A DNA stretch of 33,042 nt from an uncultured bacterium (GTDB lineage Bacteria; Patescibacteriota; Minisyncoccia; Phycocordibacterales; CAIZLB01). Positions within the stretch are counted from its first letter, which is position 1; each line of letters starts with the position of its first letter. The notes under the pieces were generated by a model. It ran no database searches. It had not been told where the DNA came from and worked only from the letters and a program-made list of their open reading frames with translations. The DNA lies in NCBI GenBank assembly GCA_903952785.1, contig CAJBHC010000079.1, positions 1 through 33,042 on the forward strand, written 5' to 3'. Below, piece after piece: positions 9,097-27,134 of the stretch. A program made the position numbers and the translations under genes.

Positions 9097-9474
9097 ATGA
9101 CCATTAAAAGCCTCTCTTCCCTGCAAATTGCTTCGATAATGAAAAAAGGTAAAGCCTATAATTCAGGCTTTTTTCTTTTAAAAACACTAGACATTCCACT
9201 TAAAATGGGTGATGAGGTAACGAAATCAGTTGTTTTTGGAGCATTCATTTCTTCGAAAAAGGTCTTTGTAAAGGCGGTTGACAGAAACAGGGCCAAAAGA
9301 AGGCTAAAAGAAGCTTTTTTAAAGGCTGTAGCGGAAATAGAGGTAAATAATTTAGAGGTCCAAATTCCTTGTTTTGTTATTTTATCAAAAATAGATGCTG
9401 TTAAGGTTGATTTTAAGGATGTTGTTAATGATATAAAGCAAATTTTATTAAAAAATTATATAATAGGACAATGA
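9097..9474 (+). CDS. rnpA: Ribonuclease P protein component
   Basis: RNRAKRRLKEAF (RNR motif), 125 aa, downstream of rpmH. Its TGA stop overlaps the yidC ATG (ATGA). Confidence 0.9.
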   Translation: MTIKSLSSLQIASIMKKGKAYNSGFFLLKTLDIPLKMGDEVTKSVVFGAFISSKKVFVKAVDRNRAKRRLKEAFLKAVAEIEVNNLEVQIPCFVILSKIDAVKVDFKDVVNDIKQILLKNYIIGQ

Positions 9475-10208
9475 TATCAAATTTTTTTAGTGTTACATTT
9501 TATAATCCACTATACAACGGCTTAGTTTTTATAATAAACCATACACCAGGTGCTGATTTGGGTGTTGCTGTTATAGTTTTTACTTGTATTGTTAAGTTTG
9601 TTCTTATTCCCCTTTCCAAGAGTTCTGTTGTTACACAACTAAAAATGAAGGCCTTGGAGCCTGAATTAAGTAAAATAAAGGAACAGTATGCAAGCAACAA
9701 GGAAGAGCAAGCTAGAAAGATGTTTGAATTCTATAAAGTAAACAAACTAAACCCTTTTTCAGGTATTGTTTTGTTGTTAATTCAACTTCCAATTATTTTA
9801 TCTTTAGCTAGTATCTTTTATACATCAGGATTACCTAATATAAATGCTAATATTTTATACAGCTTCATCCCCAATCCACAAACAGTCAACACTTTCTTTT
9901 TGGGCCTTTTAGATATAACAAAAAAGAATATTTGGTTAAGTATTATAGTTGGTGTAACTCAGTTTATACAGATAAGATATTCTGTTCCAGCTTATAAATC
10001 AACAGGAAAGACTGGAAAACAAGAAGATTTTGCTAAAAGTATGAACGTTCAAATGAGATACACCATGCCTGCAATAGTTTTTCTTATTTCATTTAGCTTA
10101 ACTTCAGCTATCTCACTTTATTGGATTACCTCAAATATATTTGCTATTGCTCAGGAGGTTTATTTTAGAAAAACAGTCAAGAAGGATTTAGAGGAAAAAG
10201 GTATATAG
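9471..10208 (+). CDS. yidC: YidC/Oxa1-family membrane protein insertase (short form)
   Basis: 245 aa with multiple hydrophobic segments. Motifs: KMKALEPELSKIKEQY, YKVNKLNPFSG, LLIQLPI. Conserved position after rnpA. Confidence 0.85.
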   Translation: MISNFFSVTFYNPLYNGLVFIINHTPGADLGVAVIVFTCIVKFVLIPLSKSSVVTQLKMKALEPELSKIKEQYASNKEEQARKMFEFYKVNKLNPFSGIVLLLIQLPIILSLASIFYTSGLPNINANILYSFIPNPQTVNTFFLGLLDITKKNIWLSIIVGVTQFIQIRYSVPAYKSTGKTGKQEDFAKSMNVQMRYTMPAIVFLISFSLTSAISLYWITSNIFAIAQEVYFRKTVKKDLEEKGI

Positions 10209-10268
10209 AAAAAAACTCTTTAAATAAGAGCTTTTTTGTTATCTGTTATATTAGGTTTTAGAGGTTGT

Positions 10269-11756
10269 TTATCTTGTGGAGGTGGCTGTTGATGTTGCTT
10301 TTGCTTTTGCTTTTGCTTTTGCTTTTGTACTAGTGCTCATTTTTGAAGAAGAATTTTTGATTGATTTTGTTGAGGAGGTGGAAGTTGCTTTTTGAGGTTT
10401 TTCTATTTGTAGACCCCATAAACTAAGGTCCTTTTTGTTTGTAAAAATTAAATAATCCTCGTTTTTATTAAGTATTGGATTAACAACATCTATCCCTTCT
10501 TTAACAGAATTCTTAATAACATAAACAAGTTTGTTTTCCATTGTTTCTGTGTTTATTTTCCAAACATTATCATTAAAGAATACCAACCCTTGATACCATG
10601 CATCTGGATATGGTGCATAAACTATAGACTCGCCAGCAGAACAAAATAGTGTGTTTTTTTCTAAAATAGACCACACACACTTTTCTGGCATTGTTCTTAT
10701 ATAAATATCTTTACTGGATTGTGTTTTAAGATTCAAAACACTAAGTTTCATAGATCCTTCAATACTTTCTCCAACTAAAACATTTAATCCGTCTGGTGAA
10801 ACTAGCGTTGTTAGGCCCGCCTGACCCCCCGTGAGTCTTTTAAAGACTTTATTTTTGATGTTAATAGAATAAGCAAAACCCTCTGAATATGCTGATGGTT
10901 TGGTGTTTAGTATAAGGGTGTCTTTGTTTGGATAAGATAATAACCACTCTCTAAATGGAGATTTATAAACATTGAAAACGCCAGTTCCATCCAATCTGCT
11001 TATGTTTATTGATGAACCCACACCTTTTTGTTCTGTATAATATGCAAAGTAGTCTTTTTCAGGCGACAAAACAACAGATAACAGATTGTAAGGAAGCTCC
11101 TTTGTTTTAAGTGACATTATTGTTGATGTTGGTGTATCAAGGGATGATGTTCCATATCTTGTTTGAATAACGTCTGAATTACCAAGAAGACCTCTCATTA
11201 ATACATTATTGCCTTTTTTATCAAAGAAAGCCTCATTTATTCTAGTATATGTTGAGTTTGTAATTCTCTCGTTTGTGTTTGTTGAGGATGCGGTTTCGTA
11301 TATTTTACCAGTTCCCCTCTCTATGTATCTAATTTTTTCTTCTTGACCTAAAATCTTTGGTTTTATAACTGTTGTTTTCTTGTTTTTACTTGAGGAAGAT
11401 GTTGAGGCGGTGGTTGTTCCTGTGTATGTTGGTGTCGATGAAGCAACAATATCCCTGATTACAAAATCAGCGCCAGATATTGGACCTGCAGTAATCATCC
11501 TAAGGGCAGGCGTTTTTGGGGTTGTGGTTGATGTTGGTTTGTCTATTGTGTTGTTATCTTGGTTTTCAACACTGTTTGTATTGTCTGATGGAAGGTCTGT
11601 TCTAACATTACCAACTCCCCCAAAAATGGTTTTGTCAGTTGGGGTTGACTCTATGTTTTTTGTAGATTGTTGGGTGTAAAAATATATACCAGAAACAACA
11701 CCAACACCAATGCTTAGAATTATTAATATTAATATTGTGAGTTTTGTTTTAGACAT
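10269..11756 (-). CDS. Signal-anchored protein: Ser/Thr-rich stalk, putative PD40/TolB-like beta-propeller, (KA)n tail
   Basis: N-terminal TM LTILILIILSIGVGVVSGIYFY, then a long S/T-rich segment. SPDG-type repeats (LSPEKDYFAY, VSPDGLNVLV, NEDYLIFT) suggest PD40 blades. C-terminal KAKAKAKAKA. The fold call is by eye only. Confidence 0.6.
   Translation of the reverse strand: MSKTKLTILILIILSIGVGVVSGIYFYTQQSTKNIESTPTDKTIFGGVGNVRTDLPSDNTNSVENQDNNTIDKPTSTTTPKTPALRMITAGPISGADFVIRDIVASSTPTYTGTTTASTSSSSKNKKTTVIKPKILGQEEKIRYIERGTGKIYETASSTNTNERITNSTYTRINEAFFDKKGNNVLMRGLLGNSDVIQTRYGTSSLDTPTSTIMSLKTKELPYNLLSVVLSPEKDYFAYYTEQKGVGSSINISRLDGTGVFNVYKSPFREWLLSYPNKDTLILNTKPSAYSEGFAYSINIKNKVFKRLTGGQAGLTTLVSPDGLNVLVGESIEGSMKLSVLNLKTQSSKDIYIRTMPEKCVWSILEKNTLFCSAGESIVYAPYPDAWYQGLVFFNDNVWKINTETMENKLVYVIKNSVKEGIDVVNPILNKNEDYLIFTNKKDLSLWGLQIEKPQKATSTSSTKSIKNSSSKMSTSTKAKAKAKAKATSTATSTR
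10297..10326. repeat. Hexanucleotide microsatellite (GCTTTT)x5 inside the 3' end of the CDS
   Basis: Five perfect tandem copies encode (Lys-Ala)5 on the minus strand. The unit length keeps the reading frame. Confidence 0.95.
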
Positions 11757-11760
11757 TGAT

Positions 11761-12513
11761 TTAAGGTTTTATTTCGGTTTTTTGGAATATATCTCCTGAT
11801 CCGTTGTTAACCAAGGCTGGGTTGATTGTGTAAAGTAGAACATATGAAAATAATGCTATAAAAAGACCTGCAAAAGCGGCGTTTATTTTTTTTCTACCAG
11901 AATCTGTTCCTTGTATTGTGTCGGTTGTTGCCAATTGAATTCCCCCAAAAGATATCATTACAATAGATAGACCTATTGCCGCCATTACACCAAGTCTGTA
12001 GACTTTAAAGAAAAATGGACTTAATCCATTGGAAATATCAAATTTTTCTACAACATTTTTTCCACTACCTGTTTTGTCTCCAATTAATCCATTGAGTGGT
12101 GCAAGTAAACAATAATTCCATTTTCCTTTTGAGGGTGAAATACCACAAGACTCAGGGTTTGGAGGTTCCTGTTGATCTAACATAGCTTGCGTTTGTTGTC
12201 CTGGGGTTATGACTGGAGATGGGGCTGTTGAAAAACCAGGTGTCCAAGATGGTACGGGAGCACTGTTGTTTATTTGAGATGGGTTCGTGTTAGAGACGCC
12301 TGTTGGAATATTCCAATTAGTTTCATCCTCGGCATAAAACGGGAAAGATTGAGAAACGCCATTTTGTGGGGGTAAATCAATTATAACATCTTCAGCTTGT
12401 GTTACTTTCACTGAGCCCACTATTAAAAACGAGTAACCAAACAAGGATATAATAATAAGTAAAGATAAAATCTTTTTATTCCAATCAATAAAATTGTTAT
12501 TAAAAATATTCAT
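11761..12513 (-). CDS. TrbC/VirB2-like type IV secretion pilin (CPR/Gram-positive T4SS_pilin type)
   Basis: Signal anchor with VTQA-ED cleavage-like site, then a Pro-rich spacer. The C-terminal module reads CLLAPLNGLIG ... two hydrophobic helices (LGVMAAIGLSIVMISFGGIQL and AAFAGLFIALFSYVLLY) ... TINPALV. From memory this matches the Pfam T4SS_pilin family. I prefer the ATG at 12513 over the TTG at 12564. Confidence 0.6.
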   Translation of the reverse strand: MNIFNNNFIDWNKKILSLLIIISLFGYSFLIVGSVKVTQAEDVIIDLPPQNGVSQSFPFYAEDETNWNIPTGVSNTNPSQINNSAPVPSWTPGFSTAPSPVITPGQQTQAMLDQQEPPNPESCGISPSKGKWNYCLLAPLNGLIGDKTGSGKNVVEKFDISNGLSPFFFKVYRLGVMAAIGLSIVMISFGGIQLATTDTIQGTDSGRKKINAAFAGLFIALFSYVLLYTINPALVNNGSGDIFQKTEIKP

Positions 12514-12576
12514 TACTAATATAATACAACAAATAAGGTTTGATGTATATTTAAATATCACCAACCTTATAAATAT

Positions 12577-13662
12577 CTAGTTGTTCTTAAACAAAAAATC
12601 TATAGCACTTCTTGTTGTTTGCATTATGTGTGTTGGGTTTGAGATATCCACAAAAACACTCGCTAAATCAACCTTCTCTTTGGAGTTTTTCTTGATGGTA
12701 ACCGTATTTGTATTGCTTGGAATATTAATCTTCTCAGAGTTTACATACCACGTGTATTCCAAACCAGAGCTTTTGTTGTTTATACTAAAATTATATGGAA
12801 ATACGCTTATTTTTGATTCATTTCTACTACCCAGGTTTATTTGGTTCATTAAGGAATAGTTAAACATTATACCGTTTGTTGGGTTGTCTTCGTAAAACAA
12901 AGCAAAAGAGTTCTTTTCTGATAATACACTGCTACCAACCCCTTTTCTTGTCTCTTGTCCAGATGGATATGCCTCAACCCCAATTTCTTTATCTAGCGGT
13001 ATTATATCAGCTGTATACTTGAAGTAGTTTTTACCATACCCAGAATTATCTCCCATAACCTCTCTATCTACACTCCATTTGTACACAATATTTGAATCAC
13101 TAACCCTGGAGGAGCCATTAATAAAATTTGGTATTGCAACCATTGTCACAGAAGATTCTGGAGAAAACAATGCTTTTCCTTTATAAAATGGGGGTGTATA
13201 TGTCTCCGCTTGCCACAAAAGATCTACGTTTGAGGGGTTGAAAACAAAGTTTCTTGTAATTTGGGGTTGGTTTTTTGGAAAGATGTTTAGCACTACCCTA
13301 CTTTCCCCAGATGTACCAACGTTGAATACAAATTTCTTTTGACCGTCACCTCTTAATTTTTCTTTGCCGTTAATAGTCCATTGTATATTTGTTGAGTTTA
13401 GATCTAATCCATAAGTCTCAATCATGATTGTAACATCATCGTTTGGTTTTGGTGTTTCTGGAGAAATGTTAATATCTAATTGTTGTTTAATCTCCTTTAT
13501 TTGTTCTGGTATTGGTGAATCAGATGAGTTTAGTAAATTCCCTGTTTGAGCGGAGGCCTTAGTTATTAAAGGGTTGTTGCTGCTTTGATTAAAAACAAAA
13601 AATGTAAAAACAGCTGTGATTATCAAAATTGTTTTTATGTTTTGTTTTTTAATTTTAATCAT
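12577..13662 (-). CDS. Signal-anchored secreted protein, unknown function (beta-rich)
   Basis: 361 aa. N-terminal TM KTILIITAVFTFFVF; the rest is hydrophilic and beta-strand-like. Lies within the T4SS-like gene run. No family recognised. Confidence 0.75.
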   Translation of the reverse strand: MIKIKKQNIKTILIITAVFTFFVFNQSSNNPLITKASAQTGNLLNSSDSPIPEQIKEIKQQLDINISPETPKPNDDVTIMIETYGLDLNSTNIQWTINGKEKLRGDGQKKFVFNVGTSGESRVVLNIFPKNQPQITRNFVFNPSNVDLLWQAETYTPPFYKGKALFSPESSVTMVAIPNFINGSSRVSDSNIVYKWSVDREVMGDNSGYGKNYFKYTADIIPLDKEIGVEAYPSGQETRKGVGSSVLSEKNSFALFYEDNPTNGIMFNYSLMNQINLGSRNESKISVFPYNFSINNKSSGLEYTWYVNSEKINIPSNTNTVTIKKNSKEKVDLASVFVDISNPTHIMQTTRSAIDFLFKNN

Positions 13663-13669
13663 TTAAATA

Positions 13670-13678
13670 ATTATATCA
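13670..13678 (-). promoter_or_regulatory. Extended -10 box TGATATAAT, 7 nt upstream of the ATG at 13662
   Basis: Minus-strand TGATATAAT (13678-13670), then TATTTAA, then ATG. This geometry predicts a leaderless transcript. Confidence 0.4.
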
Positions 13679-13774
13679 CTAATTATACACTGCAAATAAC
13701 TTTTTGTTTAGAATTTATACACAGATGTGTAAAATCATTTATATTAACTCGCGCACACGTTCAACTTCACCCCC

Positions 13775-14269
13775 CTACTTCTTTATCATAGACATTGCTT
13801 TTTGCACTGCGTGTGACGATTCCGTGGCGCCCTCTTGATCTTGTCCACCACCCCAAACCATAGGGCCAACATTTAGAATTACAGCCAAGGTAAAGGCGGG
13901 AATTATACTTATCGCTGGAATAAATTCAACCAAATCACAGCTGCCAAATTTCATTATGTTTTTAAAATGAAATTTAACACCAAGTTTCCAGTACAAAAGA
14001 AGTAATGATACAGTCCCTATAAACCACCCAATAAAAGGAATTACACTAATTACATCTAAAACAATACCAAGCACGATCGACAACAAAAAAACCTTTATTG
14101 TAACCCGCTTCTCACCTTGGCTTTCGCTACCAAAAACAACACCTTCATTATCCCCCTCATCGTCCTCTTCATCAAAATCATCATCCTCAAGGTCTTTTGT
14201 CAAAGAATTCCGACCAAGATATCTTTTGTTGGAGAGTTTATATTGACTTTCTGCTTGCTTTTCGTTCAT
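13775..14269 (-). CDS. Small membrane protein with acidic N-terminus, unknown function
   Basis: 164 aa. DDDFDEEDDEGDNEG is followed by 3-4 hydrophobic segments (VFLLSIVLGIVLDVISVIPFIGWFIGTVSLLLLYW, IPAISIIPAFTLAVIL). Directly downstream of VirB4. Confidence 0.7.
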   Translation of the reverse strand: MNEKQAESQYKLSNKRYLGRNSLTKDLEDDDFDEEDDEGDNEGVVFGSESQGEKRVTIKVFLLSIVLGIVLDVISVIPFIGWFIGTVSLLLLYWKLGVKFHFKNIMKFGSCDLVEFIPAISIIPAFTLAVILNVGPMVWGGGQDQEGATESSHAVQKAMSMIKK

Positions 14270-14361
14270 TACATATATATTAACAGACTACACAATAATA
14301 AAAAAGCCTTTTCTTAAAAAAGCTTTTTTACTAAACATACAAAAATCCGCCTGTGCCCGGT

Positions 14362-16209
14362 TTAAATACTTCTCTTTAAATTCTCCATTTCAGTAGCTCT
14401 CTGCTCAGCTAATTCAGCCTTTTCTTTCTTTATTTGCAAAACTTCAGATGGTTTTGATGTAATAATTTGGTTTTCTGTATATGAAGCAATAACTTTAATA
14501 GCAACGTGTTTAAGGCCGGCAAAGAACATTCCCTCTCCAACATCGGACTCAAGAAGAAGGTATTTTTCCTCATCAGTTAAATTAAAAGTTTTTTGAACAA
14601 TATCAATTGACGATGGGGACTGTTTTAACAAAATCTGAATAGATGAGTTGGAAATAATTGGTAGTCCATAAGGAGATTTTAGAAAGTCTTCAACGTCTTG
14701 TGTAATTGTGGCTAGCCCTAAATAATATTTTCTACCTCTTTTTGCTAATCCAAGTAGGAATGAGGCCGTATCTTCAGACTTCATCAAATACCACGCCTCG
14801 TCAATAACAAGCAGTCTCTTTTTTAATTCCTTTCTAATAGCATTCCAAATATAGTGCATAACAATGTACATCGCAACCGGCTTTAGCTCCTCCTCCATAT
14901 CTCTGAGTGAAAAGACAACAAACTTTTTATTGATATCAATATTTGATGGCCTGTTAATGAAACCAGCCCATGTTCCCTTTGTATATTTAGTTAATCTCTG
15001 AGCCAGTGATTCACCTCCTTCCATTCCGCCCAACACAAGCTCAAAATCAGACATTAGTGGAGGTTCAGCTGCGGCAAAGTTAGACTCAGGGGTAATATCC
15101 TTAAGGGCATAGGTTTCTGTGATGGCTCTGTCCATGACAGCATCTTCCTCTGGAGTAAGCCCTCCAAGCATTATTCTAAACAATCCAACAAGGTTGATGA
15201 TGTTTGAACGTAAAACATCCGCTGAAGACTCACCCTCTCTTGGAACTGGTAAATCAAATGGATTGATATGGTGCTCTGATGTAAGGGAAATATTAAAATA
15301 TCTTCCTCCTGTTGCTTCTGCTAGGTATTCATACTCTCTTTCTGGGTCAAGAACTATTACATCTGTATCAAACATCATTGATCTGATAATTTCTAGTTTT
15401 GTTTGATATGACTTACCAGATCCTGCTTTTGCAAAAGTTACGGAATTGTAGTTTTCTAGGGAAAATCTATCAAAAAGTATTAAACTTGAGTTGTGTCTGT
15501 TGATTCCGTACAAAATTCCCTTGTCAGATGTAAGGTCAAAGGAGATGAAGGGAAAAATGCTGGACAGTGGCTCTGAGTTTAGTTTTGAGTGAACCCCCAA
15601 TTTATCTTCCCCAATAGGAAGAACACTCTGAAAACCTTGCTCCTGTTGGAAAAGGGCTGGTTTTATAAAAACCAAGTTTGATTCAAGTATTGATTTAATC
15701 TCAGACTCTATTTTGTCCAATTCCTGCTCGTTTTCTCCGTAGATAGACAAGTATAGCCCCACATCAAAAAGTCTCTCCTGTGCCTGTTGTAGCTTGTCTC
15801 GTAGCTCTTCTAGATCTTGATAGGCGGTGTCTAACTTTGGGTCTCTAACTAATCCTTTTGTCTCTCTTGTGCTAATGTCAACTTCAATGTCTGCAACTTT
15901 TTTTGTAAACTGTCTAAGAATTGTTGAAGTATCAATTGGGTGTATAAAAATTGATATATCAAAAACCTTGTCTAGGTTGATTATTGGAGAAAACCAATTT
16001 GCCGACAAAAATCTCGGATAGGAAATAACAAAGAATGTTCTAACTATCTTCTCCCCAAGGTTTATTGTTTTAGGGCTAATTTTAAGACCAGAAGGAGCAA
16101 TAATGTCCTGTAGTTCCAAAACACCAGACTGATATATTTCTTTTGGTAGGATGGAGCTAATCGGAGAACTTTCCTGTGGTTTTGTTTTTAAAAAATCTAG
16201 TAAACTCAT
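14362..16209 (-). CDS. virB4: VirB4/TraC/ConE-type type IV secretion ATPase (lacks the usual N-terminal segment)
   Basis: Walker A FAKAGSGKSYQTK, Walker B LLVIDEAWYLM, VLDPEREYEYLAEATGG, HINPFDL, GLATITQDVEDF. The upstream motif VRTFFVISYPRFLSANWFSPI is typical of Gram-positive VirB4 proteins. Confidence 0.9.
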   Translation of the reverse strand: MSLLDFLKTKPQESSPISSILPKEIYQSGVLELQDIIAPSGLKISPKTINLGEKIVRTFFVISYPRFLSANWFSPIINLDKVFDISIFIHPIDTSTILRQFTKKVADIEVDISTRETKGLVRDPKLDTAYQDLEELRDKLQQAQERLFDVGLYLSIYGENEQELDKIESEIKSILESNLVFIKPALFQQEQGFQSVLPIGEDKLGVHSKLNSEPLSSIFPFISFDLTSDKGILYGINRHNSSLILFDRFSLENYNSVTFAKAGSGKSYQTKLEIIRSMMFDTDVIVLDPEREYEYLAEATGGRYFNISLTSEHHINPFDLPVPREGESSADVLRSNIINLVGLFRIMLGGLTPEEDAVMDRAITETYALKDITPESNFAAAEPPLMSDFELVLGGMEGGESLAQRLTKYTKGTWAGFINRPSNIDINKKFVVFSLRDMEEELKPVAMYIVMHYIWNAIRKELKKRLLVIDEAWYLMKSEDTASFLLGLAKRGRKYYLGLATITQDVEDFLKSPYGLPIISNSSIQILLKQSPSSIDIVQKTFNLTDEEKYLLLESDVGEGMFFAGLKHVAIKVIASYTENQIITSKPSEVLQIKKEKAELAEQRATEMENLKRSI

Positions 16210-16241
16210 GTTGTTTTAATTGTACGCTAAAATGCATAAAA

Positions 16242-16250
16242 ATTCTATCA
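16242..16250 (-). promoter_or_regulatory. Extended -10-like box TGATAGAAT upstream of virB4
   Basis: Minus-strand TGATAGAAT (16250-16242), 32 nt before the ATG at 16209. No Shine-Dalgarno sequence lies between them. Confidence 0.3.
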
Positions 16251-16266
16251 CGATTCTATTCTAAAT

Positions 16267-16929
16267 CTATTCTTGCCCTGACATATTGATTGGCTTCTCT
16301 ACTGTTCCTGGGTTGAATAATTTATAGAAAAACTCAATAATTTCCTCTGTGCCAAGCTCAGCTACCCTAACTCCACACCTTGCCAACCCTTGCTCCACCA
16401 CATCAACTCTTTGTTGTAGTTGGCTCTTATACTCTTCAAATTGTAAAAATTCCTCATTGTCAGCCTCTTTTTTGTCTTTCTTGCCGCCAAATAGTCCTGA
16501 AAACATCCCACCTTTTTGATTAATTATAGTTGGAGCGTAGGGTACCACAACAAAGAAGCTTTTTGTCATAATATTAACTGATTCTGTCAGATTTCTAATA
16601 AAATCCATATATTCTCTGGTTTGAACCTTCATCAGCTCACTTGCTTGAAACTTAATTCTATCATCTAACAAGTTAATATAAGGGCCAATATCCAACCTTC
16701 TTGATTGAACGAAGATTTGTATTGAAAAGTTGACTGAATTTAAGAAGTTTTGGAATTGATAAAGAACAGATTGTTGTTCTTCTTGGGATTTTAGGGCGAA
16801 GTTAATGGAAGAAGCAAGAAGAACAGCTCTCATTGAACCATCTTTTAGTATTACAATACCATCTCTAACCTCCTTTATTGGAACAAAGTCTTGTGTTGGT
16901 TTTGAGTTTATTTCTGTATTTGTTGCCAT
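16267..16929 (-). CDS. Stand-alone protein resembling the N-terminal domain of Gram-positive VirB4 ATPases
   Basis: TQDFVPIKEVRDGIVILKDGSMRAVLLASSINFALKSQEEQQSVLYQFQNFLNSVNFSIQIFVQSRRLD follows the xQxxIPxxxVxxGIIxxxDG...INFxLxSxEEQ...LNS...QI pattern I recall from the N-termini of Tn916 Orf16-type VirB4 proteins. No TM. Ends 57 nt before virB4, in a different frame. Confidence 0.5.
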   Translation of the reverse strand: MATNTEINSKPTQDFVPIKEVRDGIVILKDGSMRAVLLASSINFALKSQEEQQSVLYQFQNFLNSVNFSIQIFVQSRRLDIGPYINLLDDRIKFQASELMKVQTREYMDFIRNLTESVNIMTKSFFVVVPYAPTIINQKGGMFSGLFGGKKDKKEADNEEFLQFEEYKSQLQQRVDVVEQGLARCGVRVAELGTEEIIEFFYKLFNPGTVEKPINMSGQE

Positions 16930-16934
16930 TTTGA

Positions 16935-17375
16935 TTAATTATATATTATTTTGTCTTTATCACCACTCCTACTGTTTGTCTTTTCATTAATATCTAAACT
17001 CCACGCCAAATCCTTCAGTTTACTACTAGATACTCCAATGTTGATCTTGGGTGCCATTCTTGTTTTTTGTTCATCCAAGGACTGTTTAATTGGTTTTTCT
17101 AATTTTTTGTATGTATATAGTCTGTTTGAAAATATAAAAAAGAAGGCAGCTTCTAGAGTGTCAACAAAAGGCCTCTCGTTTACTTTGTAAAATGCTAGAG
17201 CAAGAGAGGTCATCATTATTGGGATGATTATAAGGAGAGTTACAAGAAATGGAAGTAGTTTATAGAACATGAAAGAAATACCAAGACCCCCAACTAAATA
17301 GACAAACTGTCTAAAGGTTAGGGCCCCAAATATTTTTTCATCCTCTTCAATAAATTGTGGTGTTTGATATCTCAT
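16935..17375 (-). CDS. PrgI-family (VirB3-like) small membrane protein
   Basis: EDEKIFGALTFRQFVYLVGGLGISFMFY plus a second TM LVTLLIIIPIMMTSLALAF. 146 aa, positioned just upstream of the VirB4 genes as in Gram-positive T4SS loci. Confidence 0.65.
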   Translation of the reverse strand: MRYQTPQFIEEDEKIFGALTFRQFVYLVGGLGISFMFYKLLPFLVTLLIIIPIMMTSLALAFYKVNERPFVDTLEAAFFFIFSNRLYTYKKLEKPIKQSLDEQKTRMAPKINIGVSSSKLKDLAWSLDINEKTNSRSGDKDKIIYN

Positions 17376-17388
17376 GTTGTCAAAAACA

Positions 17389-17397
17389 ATTATATCA
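17389..17397 (-). promoter_or_regulatory. Extended -10 box TGATATAAT, 13 nt upstream of the ATG at 17375
   Basis: Minus-strand TGATATAAT (17397-17389) inside the 107-nt gap. It would give a leader of about 6 nt. Confidence 0.4.
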
Positions 17398-17482
17398 CCA
17401 GTGGGCGATTCTCCAAAATCGTCCCTGGGAAGATTTTGCTAAATCTCGAAATTATTCTGCGTCCTCCTTTTTAATATTTTAA

Positions 17483-17839
17483 CTAAATATTTGTTTCGGC
17501 TTTGGTTGCAATGTCTCCAGAAGATTGAATTTTTTGTAAATTTTCTCTAATTGGAACAATAACAAGAAGATCAATATCTTTCACGATTTCCACAGCAGCA
17601 TCCTTTGATAAGTTCATTTTAGATTCCATTTCCGAGATTAAATTTGACGACTCTATCTCGCCAAAAATAAATCTTGCTAATAGATCCTCCAAAACCGCGG
17701 ATTGATCAATGTGGAGTTTGTGTTTTTTGGTTATTGTCTCAAGCCCTAAATCATAATCACTCGTTCTAATAGCTTGTTGAAAGTCTGGTGGAAGTCCATT
17801 AAATTTATTACCTTGTCTTTCTATTGAATTTGCTGTCAT
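17483..17839 (-). CDS. Small cytoplasmic-looking protein, paralogous domain shared with the upstream ORF
   Basis: 118 aa. GLPPDFQQAIRTSDYD...IDQS...IVKDIDLLVIVP aligns without gaps to TLPSDLKERLLMLDYE...KDEQ...IFEEIDRTILVP of ORF 17841-18581. The ATG lies 1 nt after that ORF's stop. Confidence 0.7.
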   Translation of the reverse strand: MTANSIERQGNKFNGLPPDFQQAIRTSDYDLGLETITKKHKLHIDQSAVLEDLLARFIFGEIESSNLISEMESKMNLSKDAAVEIVKDIDLLVIVPIRENLQKIQSSGDIATKAETNI

Positions 17840-17840
17840 T

Positions 17841-18581
17841 TTATTTTGTTTGTTCTCGGTATGGGTCTATTTTATAATATGTTGATTTTAAGGGCTGTGC
17901 AGATGGCTCTGTCAGTTTTCCATTGAGAATATCTTCTTTTGTTGGCATTACCATTGATGCTGGGTTAGATGATTGGATTGGTGGTGTGGGTGTGGTGGTT
18001 GGTGATGATGAAGCTGGTGTTGTTGTCTGGGTTGGTACAATCTCTGGTGTTGGTGGCGTTGTATTTATAACAGGTGTTGGAGTTTGTGTTTGGACAACAG
18101 TTAAGGGTGTGTGTGCTGGAATTGTGGATGGTGCAGGGGTTGGGTTTTCGATTTCTTTTAGAATGTCTTCTGCGGTTTCGGTGGTATCTGCGGATTGATT
18201 GCTTGATTGTTCATTTGAAGCTGTTTTAATTTCTTCCGTGGTTGGCTTTGTATTATCTGTACTAATTGTTTCTGGGGCACCCTGAAGATTGTTTGGCACA
18301 AGTATTGTTCTGTCTATTTCTTCAAAAATATGTTTTGTTTCTTCTTCGTCTTCGATGGCTTCTAGTATGAGTTCAAACATTTCTTGTTTGGAGGCGAAGC
18401 CTAGGGCAACAACCTGAGTTGCATAACTAATATCCCCGATTACCTGTTCATCCTTAATAGATTTAAAGTTAACTATTTTCTTAAAGTTGTCTTCGTAGTC
18501 GAGCATTAACAACCTCTCTTTCAAATCAGAAGGTAGGGTTTGTAATCTGTTTTCAAGTTCTACATTTGTGATATTAATCAT
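17841..18581 (-). CDS. Protein with the same N-terminal domain plus a Pro/Thr-rich tail, unknown function
   Basis: 246 aa. The N-terminal ~100 aa are paralogous to ORF 17483-17839. The C-terminal half is low complexity (TPAPSTIPAHTPLTVVQTQTPTPVINTTPPTPEIVPTQTTTP). Confidence 0.7.
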   Translation of the reverse strand: MINITNVELENRLQTLPSDLKERLLMLDYEDNFKKIVNFKSIKDEQVIGDISYATQVVALGFASKQEMFELILEAIEDEEETKHIFEEIDRTILVPNNLQGAPETISTDNTKPTTEEIKTASNEQSSNQSADTTETAEDILKEIENPTPAPSTIPAHTPLTVVQTQTPTPVINTTPPTPEIVPTQTTTPASSSPTTTPTPPIQSSNPASMVMPTKEDILNGKLTEPSAQPLKSTYYKIDPYREQTK

Positions 18582-18596
18582 GTCTCTTTTGTTTTA

Positions 18597-21255
18597 TTAT
18601 TTTGCTGGTTTATTTTCTACTATTGCACTGTTTGTTCCCCTTCTTGCGTCGTTTTCTTGCCATCTGTTGATATTTTTTTCTACCCCATCGGACGCTTTTT
18701 TAATTTTATTCCTTTGATTTTTAAGATGAAAATTTTCTTTTCCTAAGTCTTTCAGTCTATCCTCTATTATTTGAAGTGCTGGGTCACCAGCACTTAGACT
18801 CGCTGCTTGTGCTCTTAAGGCGGCTGCATTTTGGTTGTTTAAGGAAATTTGACTTGCGAGCCTTGTTATAGGTAGTGTTATTTTTTCCATAACAGTATTT
18901 AGCCCCTTTAGATCCATAGAAGATGACTTTTCCGGCGCATTTTCTATTTTTGTGATGAAATCAGAAATCTCTGCCGCGTCTTCACCCAACTCACCAAACA
19001 CCTCGTCTACTTCTTTTAGTGCTGACAATGCGTCTTTTTTGACCTTGTTTTCTATATCAGCAAAAGCACCTTCTTTTGCAGACATGCCTTTGCTAATAAT
19101 TTCTTGCATGGCCAGTTGTTTACCCTTGTTAAAGCTGTTTGAAGTAACTTCGTTGGTAAATTTATTTTTATTAATTCCAAAATATTCTCTCTGGGCTTCA
19201 CCCCCTTCTTTTTCCTGAGCCTTCTTTCGTTTTATAAACAGGTCATCTGTTTCCCCAGCTCTTCTTATTAATTCACCGGTTCTTGCTTTTTTGATTAAAT
19301 CTCCCCTTGCTTGGTACATTTTTTTATCAGCATCAACTCTTGATCTATAACTTGAACTACCTCCTAATTTAGACTGAGCTAGCTTGTCCGCTCCCTGAAG
19401 AAGCATTCCTCCACCAGGAAGTCTTGAAAGAATACTGCTTTTAGACGCCCTGTCTGCCAAATAGCTAACTGGTGCTGTGGCTCTGGTTGATGCAAACTTC
19501 TTCGCTTTTGTACCCAAACTTTTTCCCCAAGCATTCATTGTTTTTGCTCCAACAGTTCCAATTGATGCCGCCGCTGTCAAACACATTACAAGCATAAAAC
19601 ATAACAAGAAAAAGAAGAAAACAGAGCTCATTCCATAGTCTCCATTGTTTGAAAATATTGCAAGCAGGTCGTTTATCTTGTCGCCCCTACCCCAGACCAT
19701 TTTAAGGGTAACAAACATAAGCAACATATATACCGGCGCAAACAATACAGCACTATTTAATCTTTTCCACCATCTGCTGGATAAACCTGATGTTTGAGGA
19801 AGTATATTTGCAGCAAAAGCAATCGGTGAGGTTACCATTAGCATTATTAAAACAGCTGTTCTTGCTAAAAACATAAAGGATGCGGCAAAGAAAATAAAAG
19901 ACAACATCAGTATAAATATGGAACCACCTAATCCAACTAGCGTCATTTTCCAAGGGTTTAATCCGACCCCCGCTCCACCTTTTTCTGCAATTGCTCCTCC
20001 TGAGTTTACCGCGGGATTATTGCTTGTTTCACTCGCTGTACCCAAAGGAGATCCTCCCCCAGTATCTTTTGCAACACCCCAAATAGTTTGTAGACCAAGT
20101 GCATTCATTATACCTAAAGACAGTTTGTTGTTTGTTAGATTTGATGCACCAGCAGATGCATCAACCAAACCCTTACTAACCGCATTATCGCCAGCTTTTG
20201 CATCACTAGAATTTGCATCAGCCTCAATCATTATCTGTTTATAAAAAACAAGTGCCGTAATATTACTTACGTCTATTATAACCTTGGTAAAAAACATGCT
20301 GAAGTTTATTAAAATTGCAGCAATAACCAATTTCCCTAATAGTTTTTTGTATCCATAACTATCAACTTGTAATATTGTTGATATTGATATAAAAACTAGA
20401 ATCAATATAAAGAACAAATTTATAAGATTTCTAAATACTTCCCATCCATATTGTATTACTGAAAAACTGTTAACAAGGTCTGTCATCGAAAGTGTAAAAC
20501 TGATCGTAAAATCAAATAGTAGCGCCGCTACAAAGAGAACCCATGATGTTAAATACAAAACAAGATATGAGAGTATGGCAACACAGCCTGGTAAACTGAT
20601 GCTTGGTACTACTCCATCCCACTTCATACAGTAAATTTCCTCAGATGATCTTTCCGCTGCTTCTTTTGCGAGGCGGTCTCTAGTGGCTCTATCTGCTGAA
20701 GTATTAAAGTTTACCGCAGGGTCTTCTTTCCATGCAATTATTTTGTCTCTGATTTGTGTATCAATGTTGCTTGATAAATTTGTTTGTTCACTCCTCGATA
20801 GATTTGAGTTTGCAAGACCGTCACGCGTTTTTATTTTGTTTGTTATTAGGGGTAATATAGAATCATAAAGACGTCCTTGCGCAGCTAAATAAGCCGCTTT
20901 TGCTTCTTCTGTTCCTTGGTTTTCATAGTGTTTTCCATAATTATAATCTAAATTAGATCCATCTACGATTACGGCTGTAATCTGCCCCCCCCTCTTTTCG
21001 GACCCCTGATAATAATTCAGTCTCCAAAAGTATCATTCTGTCTGTACAGTTAAATTTTACATAATAATCTCCTGCTGGTAATGGACACCCCGCTGAGTCA
21101 GTGACATTTTCATCTACAACAACCTGAATTATAGGAATATTTGATCCATAGGCTTGTTTAGAATTCAAATTGCCAAGCAAAACCAAAACCACTAAAACCC
21201 CCACCACAAAAATTCTTTTAGTCGCTTTATTGTTTATAAAATTCATCAAGCTCAT
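18597..21255 (-). pseudogene. VirB6/ConG-like polytopic membrane protein with its reading frame broken at a G8 tract (frameshifted, phase-variable or mis-assembled)
   Basis: Piece 1 (21255-20953) is a 100-aa signal-anchored N-terminus. Piece 2's frame is open from 21032 to 18597, but its first ATG/GTG/TTG is at 20627, leaving 135 in-frame codons with no start. The frames swap at the C8 run 20985-20992 (G8 on the coding strand). Removing one G gives a single 885-aa ORF. The body has at least seven hydrophobic segments and a long Lys/Glu-rich C-terminal tail. Confidence 0.7.
20985..20992. repeat. Homopolymer C8 (G8 on the coding strand) at the frame break
   Basis: tctgCCCCCCCCtctt. It is the longest G/C run I noticed in this AT-rich window; the other runs I saw are 6 nt or shorter. 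Confidence 0.95.
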
Positions 21256-21394
21256 TTATCGATAATTATATATCATATTAATGAAAAATAATAATTTTTT
21301 ACACACAGTTCATTAATCTATTATTTTTGTGTAATTATCTTATTCTTTATGCCGATGGTGGAAGCTTTAAAACTTTGTTTATCTGTGGCAAATA

Positions 21395-23320
21395 TTAATC
21401 AACACTACCACCGTTTGCTGCGTCATATTCATAGAGTGACTTATACTCCCAGTTTATTCCAGTGATGCTATTTATTGATTTACCTGTGAGTTGCGTTACG
21501 TTTTGGGCAACATCTATACCAGTAAGAGGTCTTCCATCAAGCCATTTATATGAATTGCTAGCAAATCTATAGTTTGGTATGTAAAAATCTATAATATTTC
21601 TTGGGCAGATATTGCGGTCGTCTCCTGAATCGTCGATTCTAACCAAAACATCAGGGCCCCCAGCAAAGTGGACTACAGCTGGAATTCCTCCATTTGTATA
21701 GCCCATTCCTCTAAGTAGGGTAATTATTTTTGAACAAACACCAACGGAAACACTTGGAATTAGCGGAAAGGCTGCATTTCTTCCTATTCCTCTGTAGCTG
21801 TTTGCATCCCAAATTTTACGCTCGACATTAAATGCAGTTTTAAACTCATACCCATACATTGTAGAGTGGCCGTTTGGCATTGGAATGTATATTGAGTTTG
21901 CTCCAATTTGTGGTGTGCTAAATCCTTGTGATGTTTCACCTGAATATCCCGCTGTTGAGCTCGGTACATTAATTGCTCCTGGTGTGCCGTAATAATTTCC
22001 CTCCGATGGTTGTGAATAATAATTCGGTACAGCTGAATAATAATCAGATGGTCTGGCTTGAGACGCCTCTTTTCCTGTCACATCCTCCAAAACCTTACTT
22101 AAGGCTATTTTAATAAGGTTGTTTACAATAGCATCAACCATTTGATCAAATTTTTGTGCAGAAACAATTCTATCTTTTGGGATATTGAGGGTTGAAGATA
22201 GGGAGTCTGCAATAAGTACGCCCGGTGTTACAGTGTCGCATGGATTTTTATCACTCTCTGGTTTGGTGTTGTCCTTACATTTCTTATAACTCAAAAAACC
22301 TCTGTTTATTGTTAGATCAAGTGTTGCTGTGTTGTTTTTTACATTAATTCTTCTACTTAACTCGTTTCCTGCGTTTATATATGAATAATAAACGTTATTT
22401 TGAGGTTTTATTAGGGCAATCCAATCTGTTGGCGTTGTAATGGTGTATTTTCCAGATTGCATTGCTACCTGTTGCATTTGACTCAAGGAACATGAGTTTC
22501 TTTGTGCATAGTTGCCTGAGTAGCTTCCTGCCAAGCCGGTTGCAATAACAATTCTAAATGGGGCACATACGTTTATACCTGTTGAGTTGTAAGCTAGTTC
22601 ATGTATGAAAGATGCCGCTTCTCTGTCTGCAAGTTGCTTAAAAAATTGTTCTGGGTTTCTAACGAAGGCTGGGTTTCCTTTAAATCCTGAGTTCGCCCAT
22701 TGAATTGTTGAATTAACAATATAATCTATAATTGTATTTACAATACACCACGCTATATCATCCCAGCTAACACCAATTTGAAAGCCTCCAACAAAAGTTC
22801 CTGTACGTGCTTTTGTTTCAGCCTCAATATTCCCTGCTACCCCAGTACCCACAAGTGTAGCGTGAACTTTAGTTGCCAGTTCAACGGCACCACCCAGTAC
22901 TGTTGTAACCTTACTGACAGCTGCGGATACAGAGCTAGTTAAAAGCTTTGATAACAATTGGCTAGCAACACAGCCACTTATGTTTTGTGCTGACCCATAT
23001 TGGTTTTGGGGAGTTATTGCACCAGTGTTACTCCTGTTCGCTGTTGCATTGCTTGGGCCGACATCATCAACGGGAAGGGCTTTTGGAATACCAGATGCCC
23101 CAGCTTGAATATTTAGATTTGCTGCGCTTACACTGTCGCCTATTGCTTGATCATTGGCATCATTAAATAATGCTGGTACAGGAGGAAGCACTTGTGGTCC
23201 ATCATCGTCTTGTTGAGCTTGTGCTGTTTTTGTGTAACCAAGGGTGCAAACCACCATCAATATAATCACAAAATACTTAAACGTGAGCTCGGTTTTTTGA
23301 TTTTTAGTATTTTTGTGCAT
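21395..23320 (-). CDS. Large secreted protein, unknown function; C-terminus weakly resembles a double-psi beta-barrel (RlpA/3D-like) domain
   Basis: 641 aa. Signal peptide FKYFVIILMVVCTLGYTKTAQAQ. The C-terminal PAVVHFAGGPDVLVRIDDSGDDRNICPRNIIDFYIPNYRFA loosely matches the vVrvnDRGP...RiiDLS pattern of RlpA/3D domains. The domain call is low confidence. Confidence 0.75.
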   Translation of the reverse strand: MHKNTKNQKTELTFKYFVIILMVVCTLGYTKTAQAQQDDDGPQVLPPVPALFNDANDQAIGDSVSAANLNIQAGASGIPKALPVDDVGPSNATANRSNTGAITPQNQYGSAQNISGCVASQLLSKLLTSSVSAAVSKVTTVLGGAVELATKVHATLVGTGVAGNIEAETKARTGTFVGGFQIGVSWDDIAWCIVNTIIDYIVNSTIQWANSGFKGNPAFVRNPEQFFKQLADREAASFIHELAYNSTGINVCAPFRIVIATGLAGSYSGNYAQRNSCSLSQMQQVAMQSGKYTITTPTDWIALIKPQNNVYYSYINAGNELSRRINVKNNTATLDLTINRGFLSYKKCKDNTKPESDKNPCDTVTPGVLIADSLSSTLNIPKDRIVSAQKFDQMVDAIVNNLIKIALSKVLEDVTGKEASQARPSDYYSAVPNYYSQPSEGNYYGTPGAINVPSSTAGYSGETSQGFSTPQIGANSIYIPMPNGHSTMYGYEFKTAFNVERKIWDANSYRGIGRNAAFPLIPSVSVGVCSKIITLLRGMGYTNGGIPAVVHFAGGPDVLVRIDDSGDDRNICPRNIIDFYIPNYRFASNSYKWLDGRPLTGIDVAQNVTQLTGKSINSITGINWEYKSLYEYDAANGGSVD

Positions 23321-23341
23321 TTTGACGTATGTTAACGTATA

Positions 23342-24190
23342 TTAATTTGAATTCCAGATCACTCCAATCTCATTATTACCAAATATTATATCATTGTTTT
23401 TAAAATATTTACTAATGTTTGCAAACATTTGATCATTATCCGCGATGGCGTCTTTAGAAGACTTGACTCCAAGAAGTGATTTTACAGGATCTTTGCTTTG
23501 TATATCTATTAATCTGAAAGAATCTGCAATTATTTGGTAATTGTTAACAATAGCAAGGTGGGAACTTGATACTTGTGGAGGAACCTTTATTTTTATAAGT
23601 TCTTTGCTAACATTTTCATATATTGTAGCTATTTCTAACAAACTATTTGAATATTTCTGTTGATTATCCGCAATAATCTTCATGTTTCTTATGTAAATCT
23701 CTGCAAAATTGTTTCCATAGAGCCTAATTTCAGCGTTATCAGAGTTTGTCGTAAAGATAATGCTGTTTATTCCGTACTTTGATCTTGGCAGATCACCTGC
23801 TGAAATTTGGCCCAATGCATTTTGGGCGATATCAGAAACGTTAAGGTCGCTATTCCCCGCCTCTTGATTAACATAGTCAGAATAGACCTGCTTGGCCATT
23901 CTTGCAGTCGCATTATCATTCTCTGTAATTGTGAAAGGGTCCTCTTCTGTCCCAACTTCATCAATTTGCTCTGAACTATCTATTGCAGATAGAATCTTTG
24001 TTACAGTTTCATCTTCTTTGTCCCCTGTTATATTAAAAAGTCTGGCCGATTGTCTTTGATTGGCCAAATCCTGTTGGTTTTTTATATCGGCAATTTTATA
24101 AGAAACAACTCCAGCAATAATGGAGATGCAAATTGCTCCAAGTATTAAAACTTTATTATGAGAATTTTTACTAGAACTTGAATTTTTCAC
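23342..24190 (-). CDS. Signal-anchored protein, unknown function (first ORF of the T4SS-like run)
   Basis: 282 aa. GTG start 2 nt after the rsmA stop. TM VLILGAICISIIAGVVSY. No family recognised. Confidence 0.7.
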   Translation of the reverse strand: MKNSSSSKNSHNKVLILGAICISIIAGVVSYKIADIKNQQDLANQRQSARLFNITGDKEDETVTKILSAIDSSEQIDEVGTEEDPFTITENDNATARMAKQVYSDYVNQEAGNSDLNVSDIAQNALGQISAGDLPRSKYGINSIIFTTNSDNAEIRLYGNNFAEIYIRNMKIIADNQQKYSNSLLEIATIYENVSKELIKIKVPPQVSSSHLAIVNNYQIIADSFRLIDIQSKDPVKSLLGVKSSKDAIADNDQMFANISKYFKNNDIIFGNNEIGVIWNSN

Positions 24191-24192
24191 AG

Positions 24193-25074
24193 TTAAAGTA
24201 TATCAATAGATGACAATTTTTTCCACTCTTCAAATGTCAATGTTTCTGCCCTAGCGTCCTGTCTTATTTCACACAAGCTTAATATCTTATCAGGTTCAGT
24301 AAATATTCCCTCTTCTTTTAAATTTCCTTTTAACAACTTTCTTTTGTGAGCAAACCCAGCGTGTAATATATCAAAAAATATTTTCTCTTTTGCTTCGCTG
24401 TCGTCAAAGTTCTTCTTAGATATTTTATCAATCAATAATATTGCGGAGTCTACTTTTGGCGATGGAACAAACGCCCCTTTTGGAACCCTATCAATAATTC
24501 TTGGTGTGCCAATTGCTTTAACTGCAATTGATAAAATACTTTCTCTTTTATCTCTTGAAACAATTCTCTCCGCTACCTCTTTTTGGACTAGCACAACCGC
24601 TTTTTCTGGAAATAAATTTCCTCCAATAATATTTCTTATAATAGCTCCTGTAATATAATACGGAATGTTTGCAATCAAACTATAGCCACCCTTCTTAAAC
24701 CCAAGGGATTTTAAATCAACTTTTAAAATATCGCTGTGTAATATTTCAATTTTTCCAGAGTTAATTTCCTGAGCAAACTTTTCTTGAAGTATCGGAATTA
24801 GTCTATCGTCCATTTCTATTAGAATAATTTTCTTAGCAGGAGTCTTGGCAAGTTTTTCAGTAAGTGAGCCCATTCCAGGGCCAATTTCAAGGACTATTTT
24901 GTTATTTAAATCCCCAGCACCCTCAATAATTTGGTTCAGAGCCTTTTGTGATTTTAAAAAGTTTTGCCCAAGAGATTTTTTTGCAAACACAGAGTCTTTT
25001 TCTCTGACACCTCCGTCCGTGTCCTTTATAAATTCCTCAGAATTTTTTCTGTCTTTTAAATTGTTTTTTCTCAT
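24193..25074 (-). CDS. rsmA: 16S rRNA (adenine1518/1519-N6)-dimethyltransferase
   Basis: LGQNFL, VLEIGPGMGSLTEKL (SAM site), ANIPYYITG. I prefer the ATG at 25074 (MRKNNLK) because it removes the 59-nt overlap with pcrA created by the track start at 25152. Confidence 0.93.
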   Translation of the reverse strand: MRKNNLKDRKNSEEFIKDTDGGVREKDSVFAKKSLGQNFLKSQKALNQIIEGAGDLNNKIVLEIGPGMGSLTEKLAKTPAKKIILIEMDDRLIPILQEKFAQEINSGKIEILHSDILKVDLKSLGFKKGGYSLIANIPYYITGAIIRNIIGGNLFPEKAVVLVQKEVAERIVSRDKRESILSIAVKAIGTPRIIDRVPKGAFVPSPKVDSAILLIDKISKKNFDDSEAKEKIFFDILHAGFAHKRKLLKGNLKEEGIFTEPDKILSLCEIRQDARAETLTFEEWKKLSSIDIL

Positions 25075-27127: not shown

Positions 27128-27134
27128 ATTTTTT

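Follow-up and report, generated by a model that had tools for sequence, protein, structure and literature searches.

We analyzed contig CAJBHC010000079.1 from an uncultured bacterium over one continuous stretch of 33,042 nt, hereafter called the window, to which the coordinates below refer. The window lies near the replication origin of a chromosome low in GC (31-40%), and its central part (positions 10269-24190) is filled by an unbroken run of minus-strand genes predicted to encode a type IV secretion system (T4SS) together with a set of envelope and surface proteins. Mechanical calling gives 13 open reading frames (ORFs) in this interval rather than the twelve counted in a preliminary description of the locus. 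Two of these ORFs (20953-21255 and 18597-20627) are parts of a single frameshifted VirB6-like gene, so the run comprises 12 genes, and counted in this way the intergenic gaps of 1-139 nt that had been described are recovered. The first module ORF begins 2 nt past the stop codon of rsmA (24190 versus 24193), as was also noted at the outset. The GC content of the module matches that of its flanks and composition is uniform throughout. For comparison, we scanned one genome per species and found 574 loci that encode a VirB4 relative, of which the best 80 were kept; synteny was counted in the 38 loci with full 10-kb flanks.

The ATPase of the module, VirB4 (14362-16209, 615 aa), comprises the rest of the N-terminal domain followed by the P-loop domain. 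It matches the Pfam families P-loop_TraG (E = 3.9e-25) and AAA_10 (E = 2.3e-10), and it carries a P-loop that reads AKAGSGKS by eye and a Walker B sequence, LLVIDE, at residue 466. Its closest relative of solved structure is VirB4 from Thermoanaerobacter (4AG5, E = 2e-38), and TrwK of R388 is matched at E = 6e-7. Because the best solved relative is a Firmicutes protein, the "Gram-positive type" label originally attached to this ATPase is supported. The picture of VirB4 as one ORF did not hold, however. Within the TraC_F_IV profile, the 615-aa protein accounts with its N-terminus for positions 292-373, whereas positions 16-175 are matched by a separate upstream ORF (16267-16929) with E = 1.6e-6 and 27.8 bits, just under the cut-off of 28.1. 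This second ORF, which the preliminary description had not called, also matches the NCBIfam models VirB4_plasma (3e-11) and TrsD/TraD (2.2e-6), both far under the curated cut-offs, and it stands as a separate ORF in 78 of the 80 loci. These profile matches, taken with synteny, indicate that VirB4 is split into a TrsD-type protein, corresponding to the N-terminal domain, and the ATPase part. Five nucleotides upstream of TrsD lies the gene for a PrgI/VirB3-like protein with two transmembrane (TM) segments (16935-17375), which matches Pfam PrgI at E = 1.1e-9 and 39.2 bits against a cut-off of 27 and is present in 38/38 loci. The earlier assignment of this protein is thus confirmed.

The fourth core component is a polytopic membrane protein of 885 aa after frame correction (18597-21255), which is predicted to begin with a signal or anchor, followed by an ectodomain of ~190 aa that varies between strains, by at least six TM segments and by a long coiled-coil tail. 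TrbL is the sole recurring family match: the window copy scores E = 0.005, below the gathering cut-off, and seven of 41 orthologues match it, with a best value of 1.7e-4. Searched against the PDB, a profile of the family found nothing but coiled coils, which matched the tail. The gene holds the VirB6 slot in all related loci. Topology and position therefore agree with the VirB6-like protein proposed initially, but the family match is weak and we treat the VirB6 identity as provisional. When the gene was compared with that of an 89%-identical relative (window positions ~20630-21130 versus L085:6960-7430), the TM core aligned and the DNA of the ectodomain could not be aligned. The first ~120 nt compared, consisting of the leader and the first ~75 nt of the gene, are 96% identical between the same two genomes. 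From these alignments the ectodomain, some 170-190 aa in length, appears to be a localised hypervariable surface region.

The VirB6-like gene is interrupted in the window by a +1 frameshift within a run of eight G residues (C8 on the plus strand, 20985-20992), which leaves a 100-aa ORF (20953-21255) and a 676-aa ORF (18597-20627). The frame of the 676-aa ORF is open for 135 codons upstream of its ATG and contains no ATG, GTG or TTG in that extension. The G8 run is the only G/C homopolymer of at least 8 nt in the window and falls in the overlap of the two frames; deletion of a single G restores one ORF of 885 aa. A public contig of 63,128 nt from the same organism carries the intact 885-aa gene at this position, with downstream genes offset by 1 nt relative to the window, and encodes identical copies of four other module proteins (p641, p282, p246 and p118). 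In close relatives the VirB6-like protein is likewise the product of single genes, of 946, 916 and 913 aa, and no record of the 100-aa truncated product was found anywhere. Two explanations come into question for the frameshift: an error of assembly in the homopolymer, or on/off variation at the strain level. Conserved poly-G phase variation of VirB6 was considered and rejected, as 1.3 Mb of related loci contain 20 runs of at least 7 nt against ~40 expected, and none of these cluster at the 5' end of the gene.

The module also encodes a VirB2-like T4SS pilin (11761-12513), with a 250-aa product counted from the likely start codon, M18 of a 267-aa ORF; a 250-aa product is called on the public contig as well. 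The protein has a signal peptide, an N-terminal region rich in Pro, Ser and Thr, and a C-terminal two-TM pilin domain ending in the motif TINP, of which T, I and P are nearly invariant in the pilin alignment. The window copy has no Pfam match of its own. Among orthologues scanned alongside it, however, 24 of 25 match PF18895 (T4SS_pilin; best E = 2e-9), and a local hidden Markov model (HMM) built from their pilin domains recovers the window copy at 2.6e-29 as the only such ORF in the window. The TrbC/VirB2-like pilin with TINP motif recognised in the preliminary description is accordingly borne out. Iterative and profile searches found the pilin in 59 sources. Another candidate, the small protein p164 encoded directly after VirB4, was rejected because the pilin HMM does not recognise it. 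Pilin orthologues at five loci (L018, L051, L072, L074 and L004; for example L018:13287-14162) have extra C-terminal domains after the TINP domain. One orthologue matches Peptidase_M15_4 and one CHAP, and an H..D/HWH zinc-peptidase-like motif is visible by eye; these extended orthologues would be pilin-hydrolase fusions, judging from their domain matches. The window pilin is instead extended at its N-terminus by the Pro/Ser/Thr-rich region.

Comparison across genomes showed that this gene set occupies a fixed chromosomal position. The best 80 of the 574 VirB4 relatives are 76-85% identical and come from Patescibacteria-type or unclassified bacterial metagenome-assembled genomes, the former including Paceibacteria/Parcubacteria, Taylor-, Zambryski-, Campbell- and Nomurabacteria and some labelled Saccharibacteria. 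A single gene order is shared by the 38 loci with full flanks: pcrA, rsmA, (p282), p641, VirB6, (p118), PrgI, TrsD, VirB4, p361, (pilin), p495, yidC in convergent orientation, dnaA and dnaN. The comparison of synteny suggested with the preliminary description thus gave a uniform answer. Plain tblastn was sufficient to find p641, p361 and p495 in every one of these loci. Except for p246, each of the 12 module genes is represented by relatives in 53 or more of the 80 related loci, so that most of the supposed padding is no random filler. The block is vertically inherited at a fixed rsmA-yidC site beside dnaA.

Genes typical of conjugative elements were sought in the window and in its ~9-kb left flank, ~42 kb of contig in total. 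No large ORF in the window contains a relaxase, coupling-protein or integrase domain by Pfam, and neither the window nor the left flank encodes a relaxase or coupling protein (MOB, TraG/VirD4/TcpA or FtsK-like). The window contains no tRNA and no Rfam family, and the search for attachment (att)-like direct repeats returned only short, imperfect matches at chance level. The absences reported previously for the window (relaxase, coupling ATPase, integrase, tRNA and repeats) were therefore reproduced, and the adjacent relaxase, coupling protein or integrase that would make this an ordinary integrative and conjugative element (ICE) did not appear in the left flank either.

The largest accessory protein, p641 (21395-23320), has a signal peptide and is predicted to be secreted. 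It consists of a mostly helical, Cys-containing conserved core (residues ~100-420) with invariant Cys residues and the motif WANSGFKGNPAF, followed by a low-complexity linker and a C-terminal domain (~480-641). The core defines an unnamed family of very large size, which comprises 5,529 representative clusters when E ≤ 1e-3 is required and 2,791 at 1e-30, whereas a C-terminal domain of the type seen here occurs in only three other proteins. Scanned alone against Pfam with E values up to 5, the C-terminal domain had no match; by eye it might be guessed to form an RlpA/3D-like double-psi barrel. Neither the whole window copy nor this domain alone matches SLT, CHAP or M23, and so p641 of the window does not qualify as a VirB1-like hydrolase. 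In 12 of 46 close homologues, an SLT lytic transglycosylase replaces the C-terminus, and distant orthologues end in discoidin or Ig-like domains. Fifty long representatives of the family carry Bact_surface_Ig-like (15), TSP3 (10), discoidin (6), PKD, InlB-repeat, SdrD_B, TIG and SprB domains. This domain variety indicates that p641 is a conserved secreted core joined to a swappable, adhesin-like or wall-cutting C-terminal module. An AlphaFold2 model of p641 built from 46 sequences (mean predicted local distance difference test, pLDDT, 46.6) was not usable, and Foldseek found nothing at E ≤ 0.001. Relationship of the core to VirB5/TrbJ or CTnDOT-TraI (DUF4141) was also considered, but DUF4141 matched two of 38 orthologues (best 1.3e-5) and TrbJ one of 38 (0.017), too thin a basis for the assignment.

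Two further surface proteins are anchored by an N-terminal TM helix. For p361 (12577-13662), an AlphaFold2 model from 121 homologues (pLDDT 88.5, predicted template-modelling score 0.71) shows a TM helix at residues 6-24, a linker, and strands that begin only after residue 62, arranged as three immunoglobulin (Ig)-like β-sandwich domains (62-141, 146-247 and 253-357). The 50 best Foldseek matches listed are all of Ig or fibronectin type III (FN3) type, including phage Hoc, fibronectin FN3 tandems, titin and SiiE; VirB8, TcpC, TraM and PrgL do not occur among these 50. Because the model is all-β with three Ig-like domains, p361 is not NTF2/VirB8/TcpC-like, and the proposal that this 361-aa protein could be a VirB8/TcpC-like part had to be abandoned. 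The modelled structure looks like an anchored stalk or adhesin. All 468 homologues of p361 are annotated "hypothetical", and the protein is present in 38/38 loci. The last gene of the run encodes p495 (10269-11756), found in 38/38 loci, in which a Ser/Thr-rich linker precedes a propeller-like domain and a low-complexity Lys/Ala/Ser/Thr tail follows. The p495 family profile gave weak but consistent matches to TolB in the PDB (E 0.016-0.4, 12 TolB entries), and PD40 and DPPIV_N each match one orthologue. These profile matches make a β-propeller probable.

The first gene after rsmA encodes p282 (23342-24190), a bitopic protein of an unnamed family with one predicted N-terminal TM segment (~15-33) and an ectodomain of ~250 aa that appears mostly helical by eye. 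It has 41 close homologues, all unnamed, and jackhmmer found the family in 57 sources. No Pfam, NCBIfam or PDB-profile match was obtained for p282 or for its 29 orthologues, and VirB8 and TcpC families were likewise not among their matches. Profile searches of the PDB with the p641, p361, p282 and p118 families likewise returned nothing meaningful.

The remaining module genes encode smaller proteins. Between VirB6 and PrgI, p118 (17483-17839) is a small cytoplasmic protein made up of the ~110-aa N-domain of its family alone, with no Pfam or PDB match; jackhmmer places the family in 69 sources, always in this position. Its neighbor p246 (17841-18581), cytoplasmic and without TM segments, has a Pro/Thr-rich linker and a C-terminal DPYRE motif, and no Pfam family matches it above cut-off. 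The p118-seeded jackhmmer search recovered p246 as a single match (E = 2.3e-12), and on the strength of this match we regard p246 as a putative divergent tandem paralogue of p118. Other genomes have one protein of ~200-270 aa in the p118/p246 slot; it joins the N-domain through a Pro-rich linker to the DPYRE motif at the C-terminus, which is conserved across the family, and it matches no known family. Directly downstream of VirB4, p164 (13775-14269) is a small membrane protein of an unnamed family with an acidic N-terminus and two or three TM segments; its family occurs in 53 sources at the same position after VirB4.

To the left of the module, the window opens within a gene for a PilB-like T2SSE ATPase, of which it contains the 3' end (19-570, plus strand); ruvB, ruvC and a class A penicillin-binding protein gene come next, and then dnaN and dnaA (7408-8838) on the minus strand. 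The PilB-like gene, which extends on L083:6130-7845, encodes a 571-aa MshEN + T2SSE (PilB/GspE-like) ATPase that probably belongs to a type IV pilus or type II secretion system. VirB11 shares the same Pfam family, but the N-terminal MshEN domain of this ATPase and its distance from the module speak against a role as VirB11. Adjoining it outside the window, L083:3507-6002 encodes a conserved 831-aa protein without a family match. Between dnaA and rnpA lies rpmH (about 8920-9054, plus strand), a 44-aa gene shorter than the ORF-length cut-off used; its product is called on the public contig. The plus-strand genes rnpA and yidC (9471-10208; 60KD_IMP, 1e-38) complete this side. The convergent yidC is the downstream neighbor of the module in 38/38 loci and marks its boundary.

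On the other side, rsmA/ksgA (24193-25074, minus strand; RrnaAD, 5e-46), whose 293-aa product is called on the public contig, is adjacent to the module in 36/38 loci, and pcrA lies beyond it on the same strand. The 2-nt spacing and the conserved adjacency make co-transcription of the module with pcrA-rsmA plausible. Promoter and terminator scans gave counts equal to those in shuffled sequence and are therefore uninformative on operon structure. Divergent from pcrA and 3.3 kb from the module is a gene for a LysM-LysM-M23 peptidase (27466-28518, plus strand), which was detected in 8/38 related loci. Further right in the window are genes for a ComM-like Mg-chelatase ATPase, a DksA-like protein, a 397-aa protein, an NYN protein and rpsO. 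The 397-aa protein (30697-31890, minus strand), encoded between the NYN and DksA-like genes, is conserved and has no family match.

Several observations concern the replication origin. Three DnaA-box-like 9-mers are clustered in the dnaA-dnaN spacer (7111-7325) and one perfect box lies at 8812. The search gave 17 DnaA-box matches against 11.9 expected, a number reached in 8 of 100 shuffles and thus not significant, and the skew of GC at third codon positions (GC3) is too noisy by gene to place the origin. Together with rsmA and pcrA, the module forms ~17 kb of minus-strand genes (within 9097-27160), an arrangement kept in 38/38 genomes. If oriC lies beside dnaA, as is usual, this ~17-kb block is transcribed toward the origin and head-on to the replication fork. 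Such an orientation fits poorly with the idea of a highly expressed origin-proximal site.

Work on Patescibacteria has already established what kind of system this is. Epibiotic growth of Southlakia requires the homologous cluster, in which no coupling or relaxase proteins are recognisable (Wang et al. 2023, PMC10633639). A phylum-wide survey came to the same conclusions and located the genes near dnaA, dnaN, rnpA and ksgA in Paceibacteria (Quinonero-Coronel et al. 2025, PMC12102498). According to the survey, TrsD is the most abundant component of Patescibacteria T4SSs, VirD4-like genes occur in many Patescibacteria but far from virB4, and relaxases, found in no more than 103 genomes, lie near virB4 in just 15 cases (PMC12102498). 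Its authors propose import of DNA or macromolecules (PMC12102498), whereas Wang et al. write that the Se T4SS "may instead export proteins" (PMC10633639). A review states that comEC is dispensable for growth but the T4SS is not, and that the T4SS of Patescibacteria is the only one shown to be essential for the growth of its owner (PMC12857230). Tubular structures that extend from the parasite to its host are described for a cultivated strain of Minisyncoccota, which takes up and uses host RNA (bioRxiv 10.64898/2026.06.21.733656).

The locus shares with Southlakia epibionticum SEML1_0006-0019 (PMC10633639) and with the surveyed T4SSs (PMC12102498) its VirB4, separate TrsD, PrgI/VirB3, VirB2-like pilin and, if the weak assignment holds, VirB6. 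It also resembles the T4SSs of this clade, as described in the same sources, in having no relaxase or coupling protein nearby and no detectable VirB8, and in its chromosomal, origin-proximal position beside dnaA, dnaN, rnpA, rpmH and ksgA, as reported for Paceibacteria. In contrast to the array of six pilin genes in Southlakia (PMC10633639), there is one pilin gene here. Wall-degrading genes differ as well: Southlakia has a peptidase and a lysozyme gene downstream of virB4 (PMC10633639), whereas the candidates here are the modular p641 and the M23/LysM gene beyond pcrA. Proteins of the LysM/M23 kind near Paceibacteria virB4 are counted as VirB1-like in the survey (PMC12102498). The available text of PMC10633639 and PMC12102498 does not name the p641, p361, p495, p282, p164 and p118 families, and genes without a profile match are drawn grey in Fig. 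6 of the literature compared. MPF_FATA ancestry, TrsD, PrgI, VirB6, VirB2-like pilins, the lack of a relaxase, the rarity of a nearby coupling protein and repurposing have all been published (PMC10633639, PMC12102498, PMC12857230). Since every interpretive element is in print (Wang et al. 2023; Quinonero-Coronel et al. 2025), the locus is already known as a kind.

The module resembles the MPF_FATA conjugative T4SSs (pGO1/pSK41 Trs, pIP501 Tra and pCF10 Prg) in its Firmicutes-like VirB4 (4AG5), its PrgI-type VirB3 and its lack of outer-membrane core components, and the split between TrsD and VirB4 is that of the pGO1 subclass. Unlike those systems, it occupies a fixed chromosomal site and has no relaxase, coupling protein, oriT context or plasmid or ICE functions. 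It further differs from them in possessing a VirB2-like pilin, which the Gram-positive systems are without, and in lacking both a recognisable VirB8-like protein (PrgL, TraM or TcpC) and an LPXTG adhesin. Helicobacter pylori ComB and archaeal Ced are minimal DNA-uptake sets built around VirB4, a VirB6-like polytopic protein and small membrane proteins, to which ComB adds a VirB2-like component. Neither system is known to include a relaxase, a coupling protein or VirB11, and both are chromosomal and not mobile. ComB has the diderm VirB7-10 core, unlike the locus described here.

We favor the reading, to which we give a probability of roughly three in four, that the module is a relaxase-less T4SS of a Paceibacteria-like Patescibacterium, derived from monoderm (MPF_FATA) conjugation machinery, and that it no longer serves conjugation. 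In this respect our analysis upholds the preliminary description, which had proposed a relaxase-less, Gram-positive-type T4SS-like machine, probably repurposed; profile matches, synteny in 38/38 loci and published conclusions all agree with it. As predicted from sequence, the module specifies a VirB3/VirB4/VirB6 membrane translocon and a VirB2-like pilin, accompanied by a constant set of proteins of the envelope and cell surface. VirB4 would power assembly of a short pilus or channel that bridges epibiont and host cell; at the surface, p361, p495 and p641 would bind and locally open the host envelope, and the machine would move macromolecules between epibiont and host. We favor import of host nucleic acid or other macromolecules over export, because a set of VirB2, VirB3, VirB4 and VirB6 with no coupling protein, relaxase or nearby VirB11 resembles the part lists of ComB and Ced more than those of exporters.

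Several points weigh against this interpretation. No feature of the sequence shows the direction of transport, or any transport at all. The VirB6 assignment is a weak one, drawn from sub-threshold matches, and the frameshifted VirB6, if taken literally, would impair this copy of the machine. All that points to the roles of p282, p164, p118/p246, p495 and the p641 core is their topology and conservation. Other parts of the genome may hold a gene for a coupling protein, given the distant VirD4-like genes reported in the survey (PMC12102498), and Wang et al. favored protein export or another role over DNA transport (PMC10633639).

Export is the strongest competitor, possible though clearly less probable than the reading above. 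In the manner of pathogen T4SSs, the apparatus would then inject or secrete proteins, for instance ones that degrade the wall or manipulate the host, delivering them to the surface or the inside of the host cell; export of proteins is also what Wang et al. suggest (PMC10633639). The p641 homologues with lytic transglycosylase domains could be cargo for such a machine, and the Ptl and Brucella VirB systems export their substrates without a coupling protein (PMC12102498, PMC12857230). Yet p641, p361, p495 and the pilin carry Sec-type signals or anchors and so would not need a T4SS to leave the cytoplasm, and the window contains neither a candidate cytoplasmic effector with a T4SS signal nor a coupling protein.

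It is unlikely, in our view, that the module is an adhesion organelle only, in which a VirB4-powered pilus with Ig-like, propeller and adhesin proteins attaches to the host and transfers nothing. The conserved accessory proteins are indeed mostly of adhesin-type folds or modules, and a pilin is present although Gram-positive T4SSs normally do without one. However, the type IV pili of Patescibacteria are already implicated in adhesion (PMC12857230, PMC10633639), the window itself starts on the left within a gene for a PilB-like ATPase, and the strong conservation of VirB6 and of VirB3/VirB4 (VirB4 being 76-85% identical across species) argues for a translocon over a simple fiber. A conjugative element or ICE with its relaxase, coupling protein and integrase outside the window is very improbable: although VirB4, TrsD, PrgI and VirB6 descend from monoderm conjugation systems, many Patescibacteria have VirD4-like genes elsewhere and a few genomes carry relaxases (PMC12102498), and ~21 kb of the contig lies to the right of the ~42 kb searched, the rsmA-yidC position is insertion-free in 38/38 genomes from different species, nothing relevant was found in the ~9-kb left flank, no tRNA or integrase accompanies the module, relaxases are close to virB4 in only 15 cases among the 103 genomes that have any (PMC12102498), and the fixed synteny, the lack of att-like repeats and the uniform composition exclude an ICE for practical purposes.

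Returning to a T4SS that bridges epibiont and host, we tentatively suggest, as an idea more doubtful than not, that its surface proteins form a head for host recognition and envelope breaching. The p641 core might dock on the pilus or channel as a VirB5-like tip, with its C-terminal module exchanged between strains. Together with the variable VirB6 ectodomain, it might constitute a polymorphic determinant of host range, to which the G8 tract could add on/off switching.

Much of bacterial diversity belongs to the Patescibacteria, which seem to live on other cells. The locus is no new kind of system but a clean, fully syntenic Paceibacteria example of a known one; what it adds is the exact synteny, the fold of p361, the modularity and size of the p641 family, the split VirB4 and the frameshifted VirB6. 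The Ig-domain stalk, the probable propeller and the modular p641 are candidates for host contact, for wall breaching and for determinants of host range.

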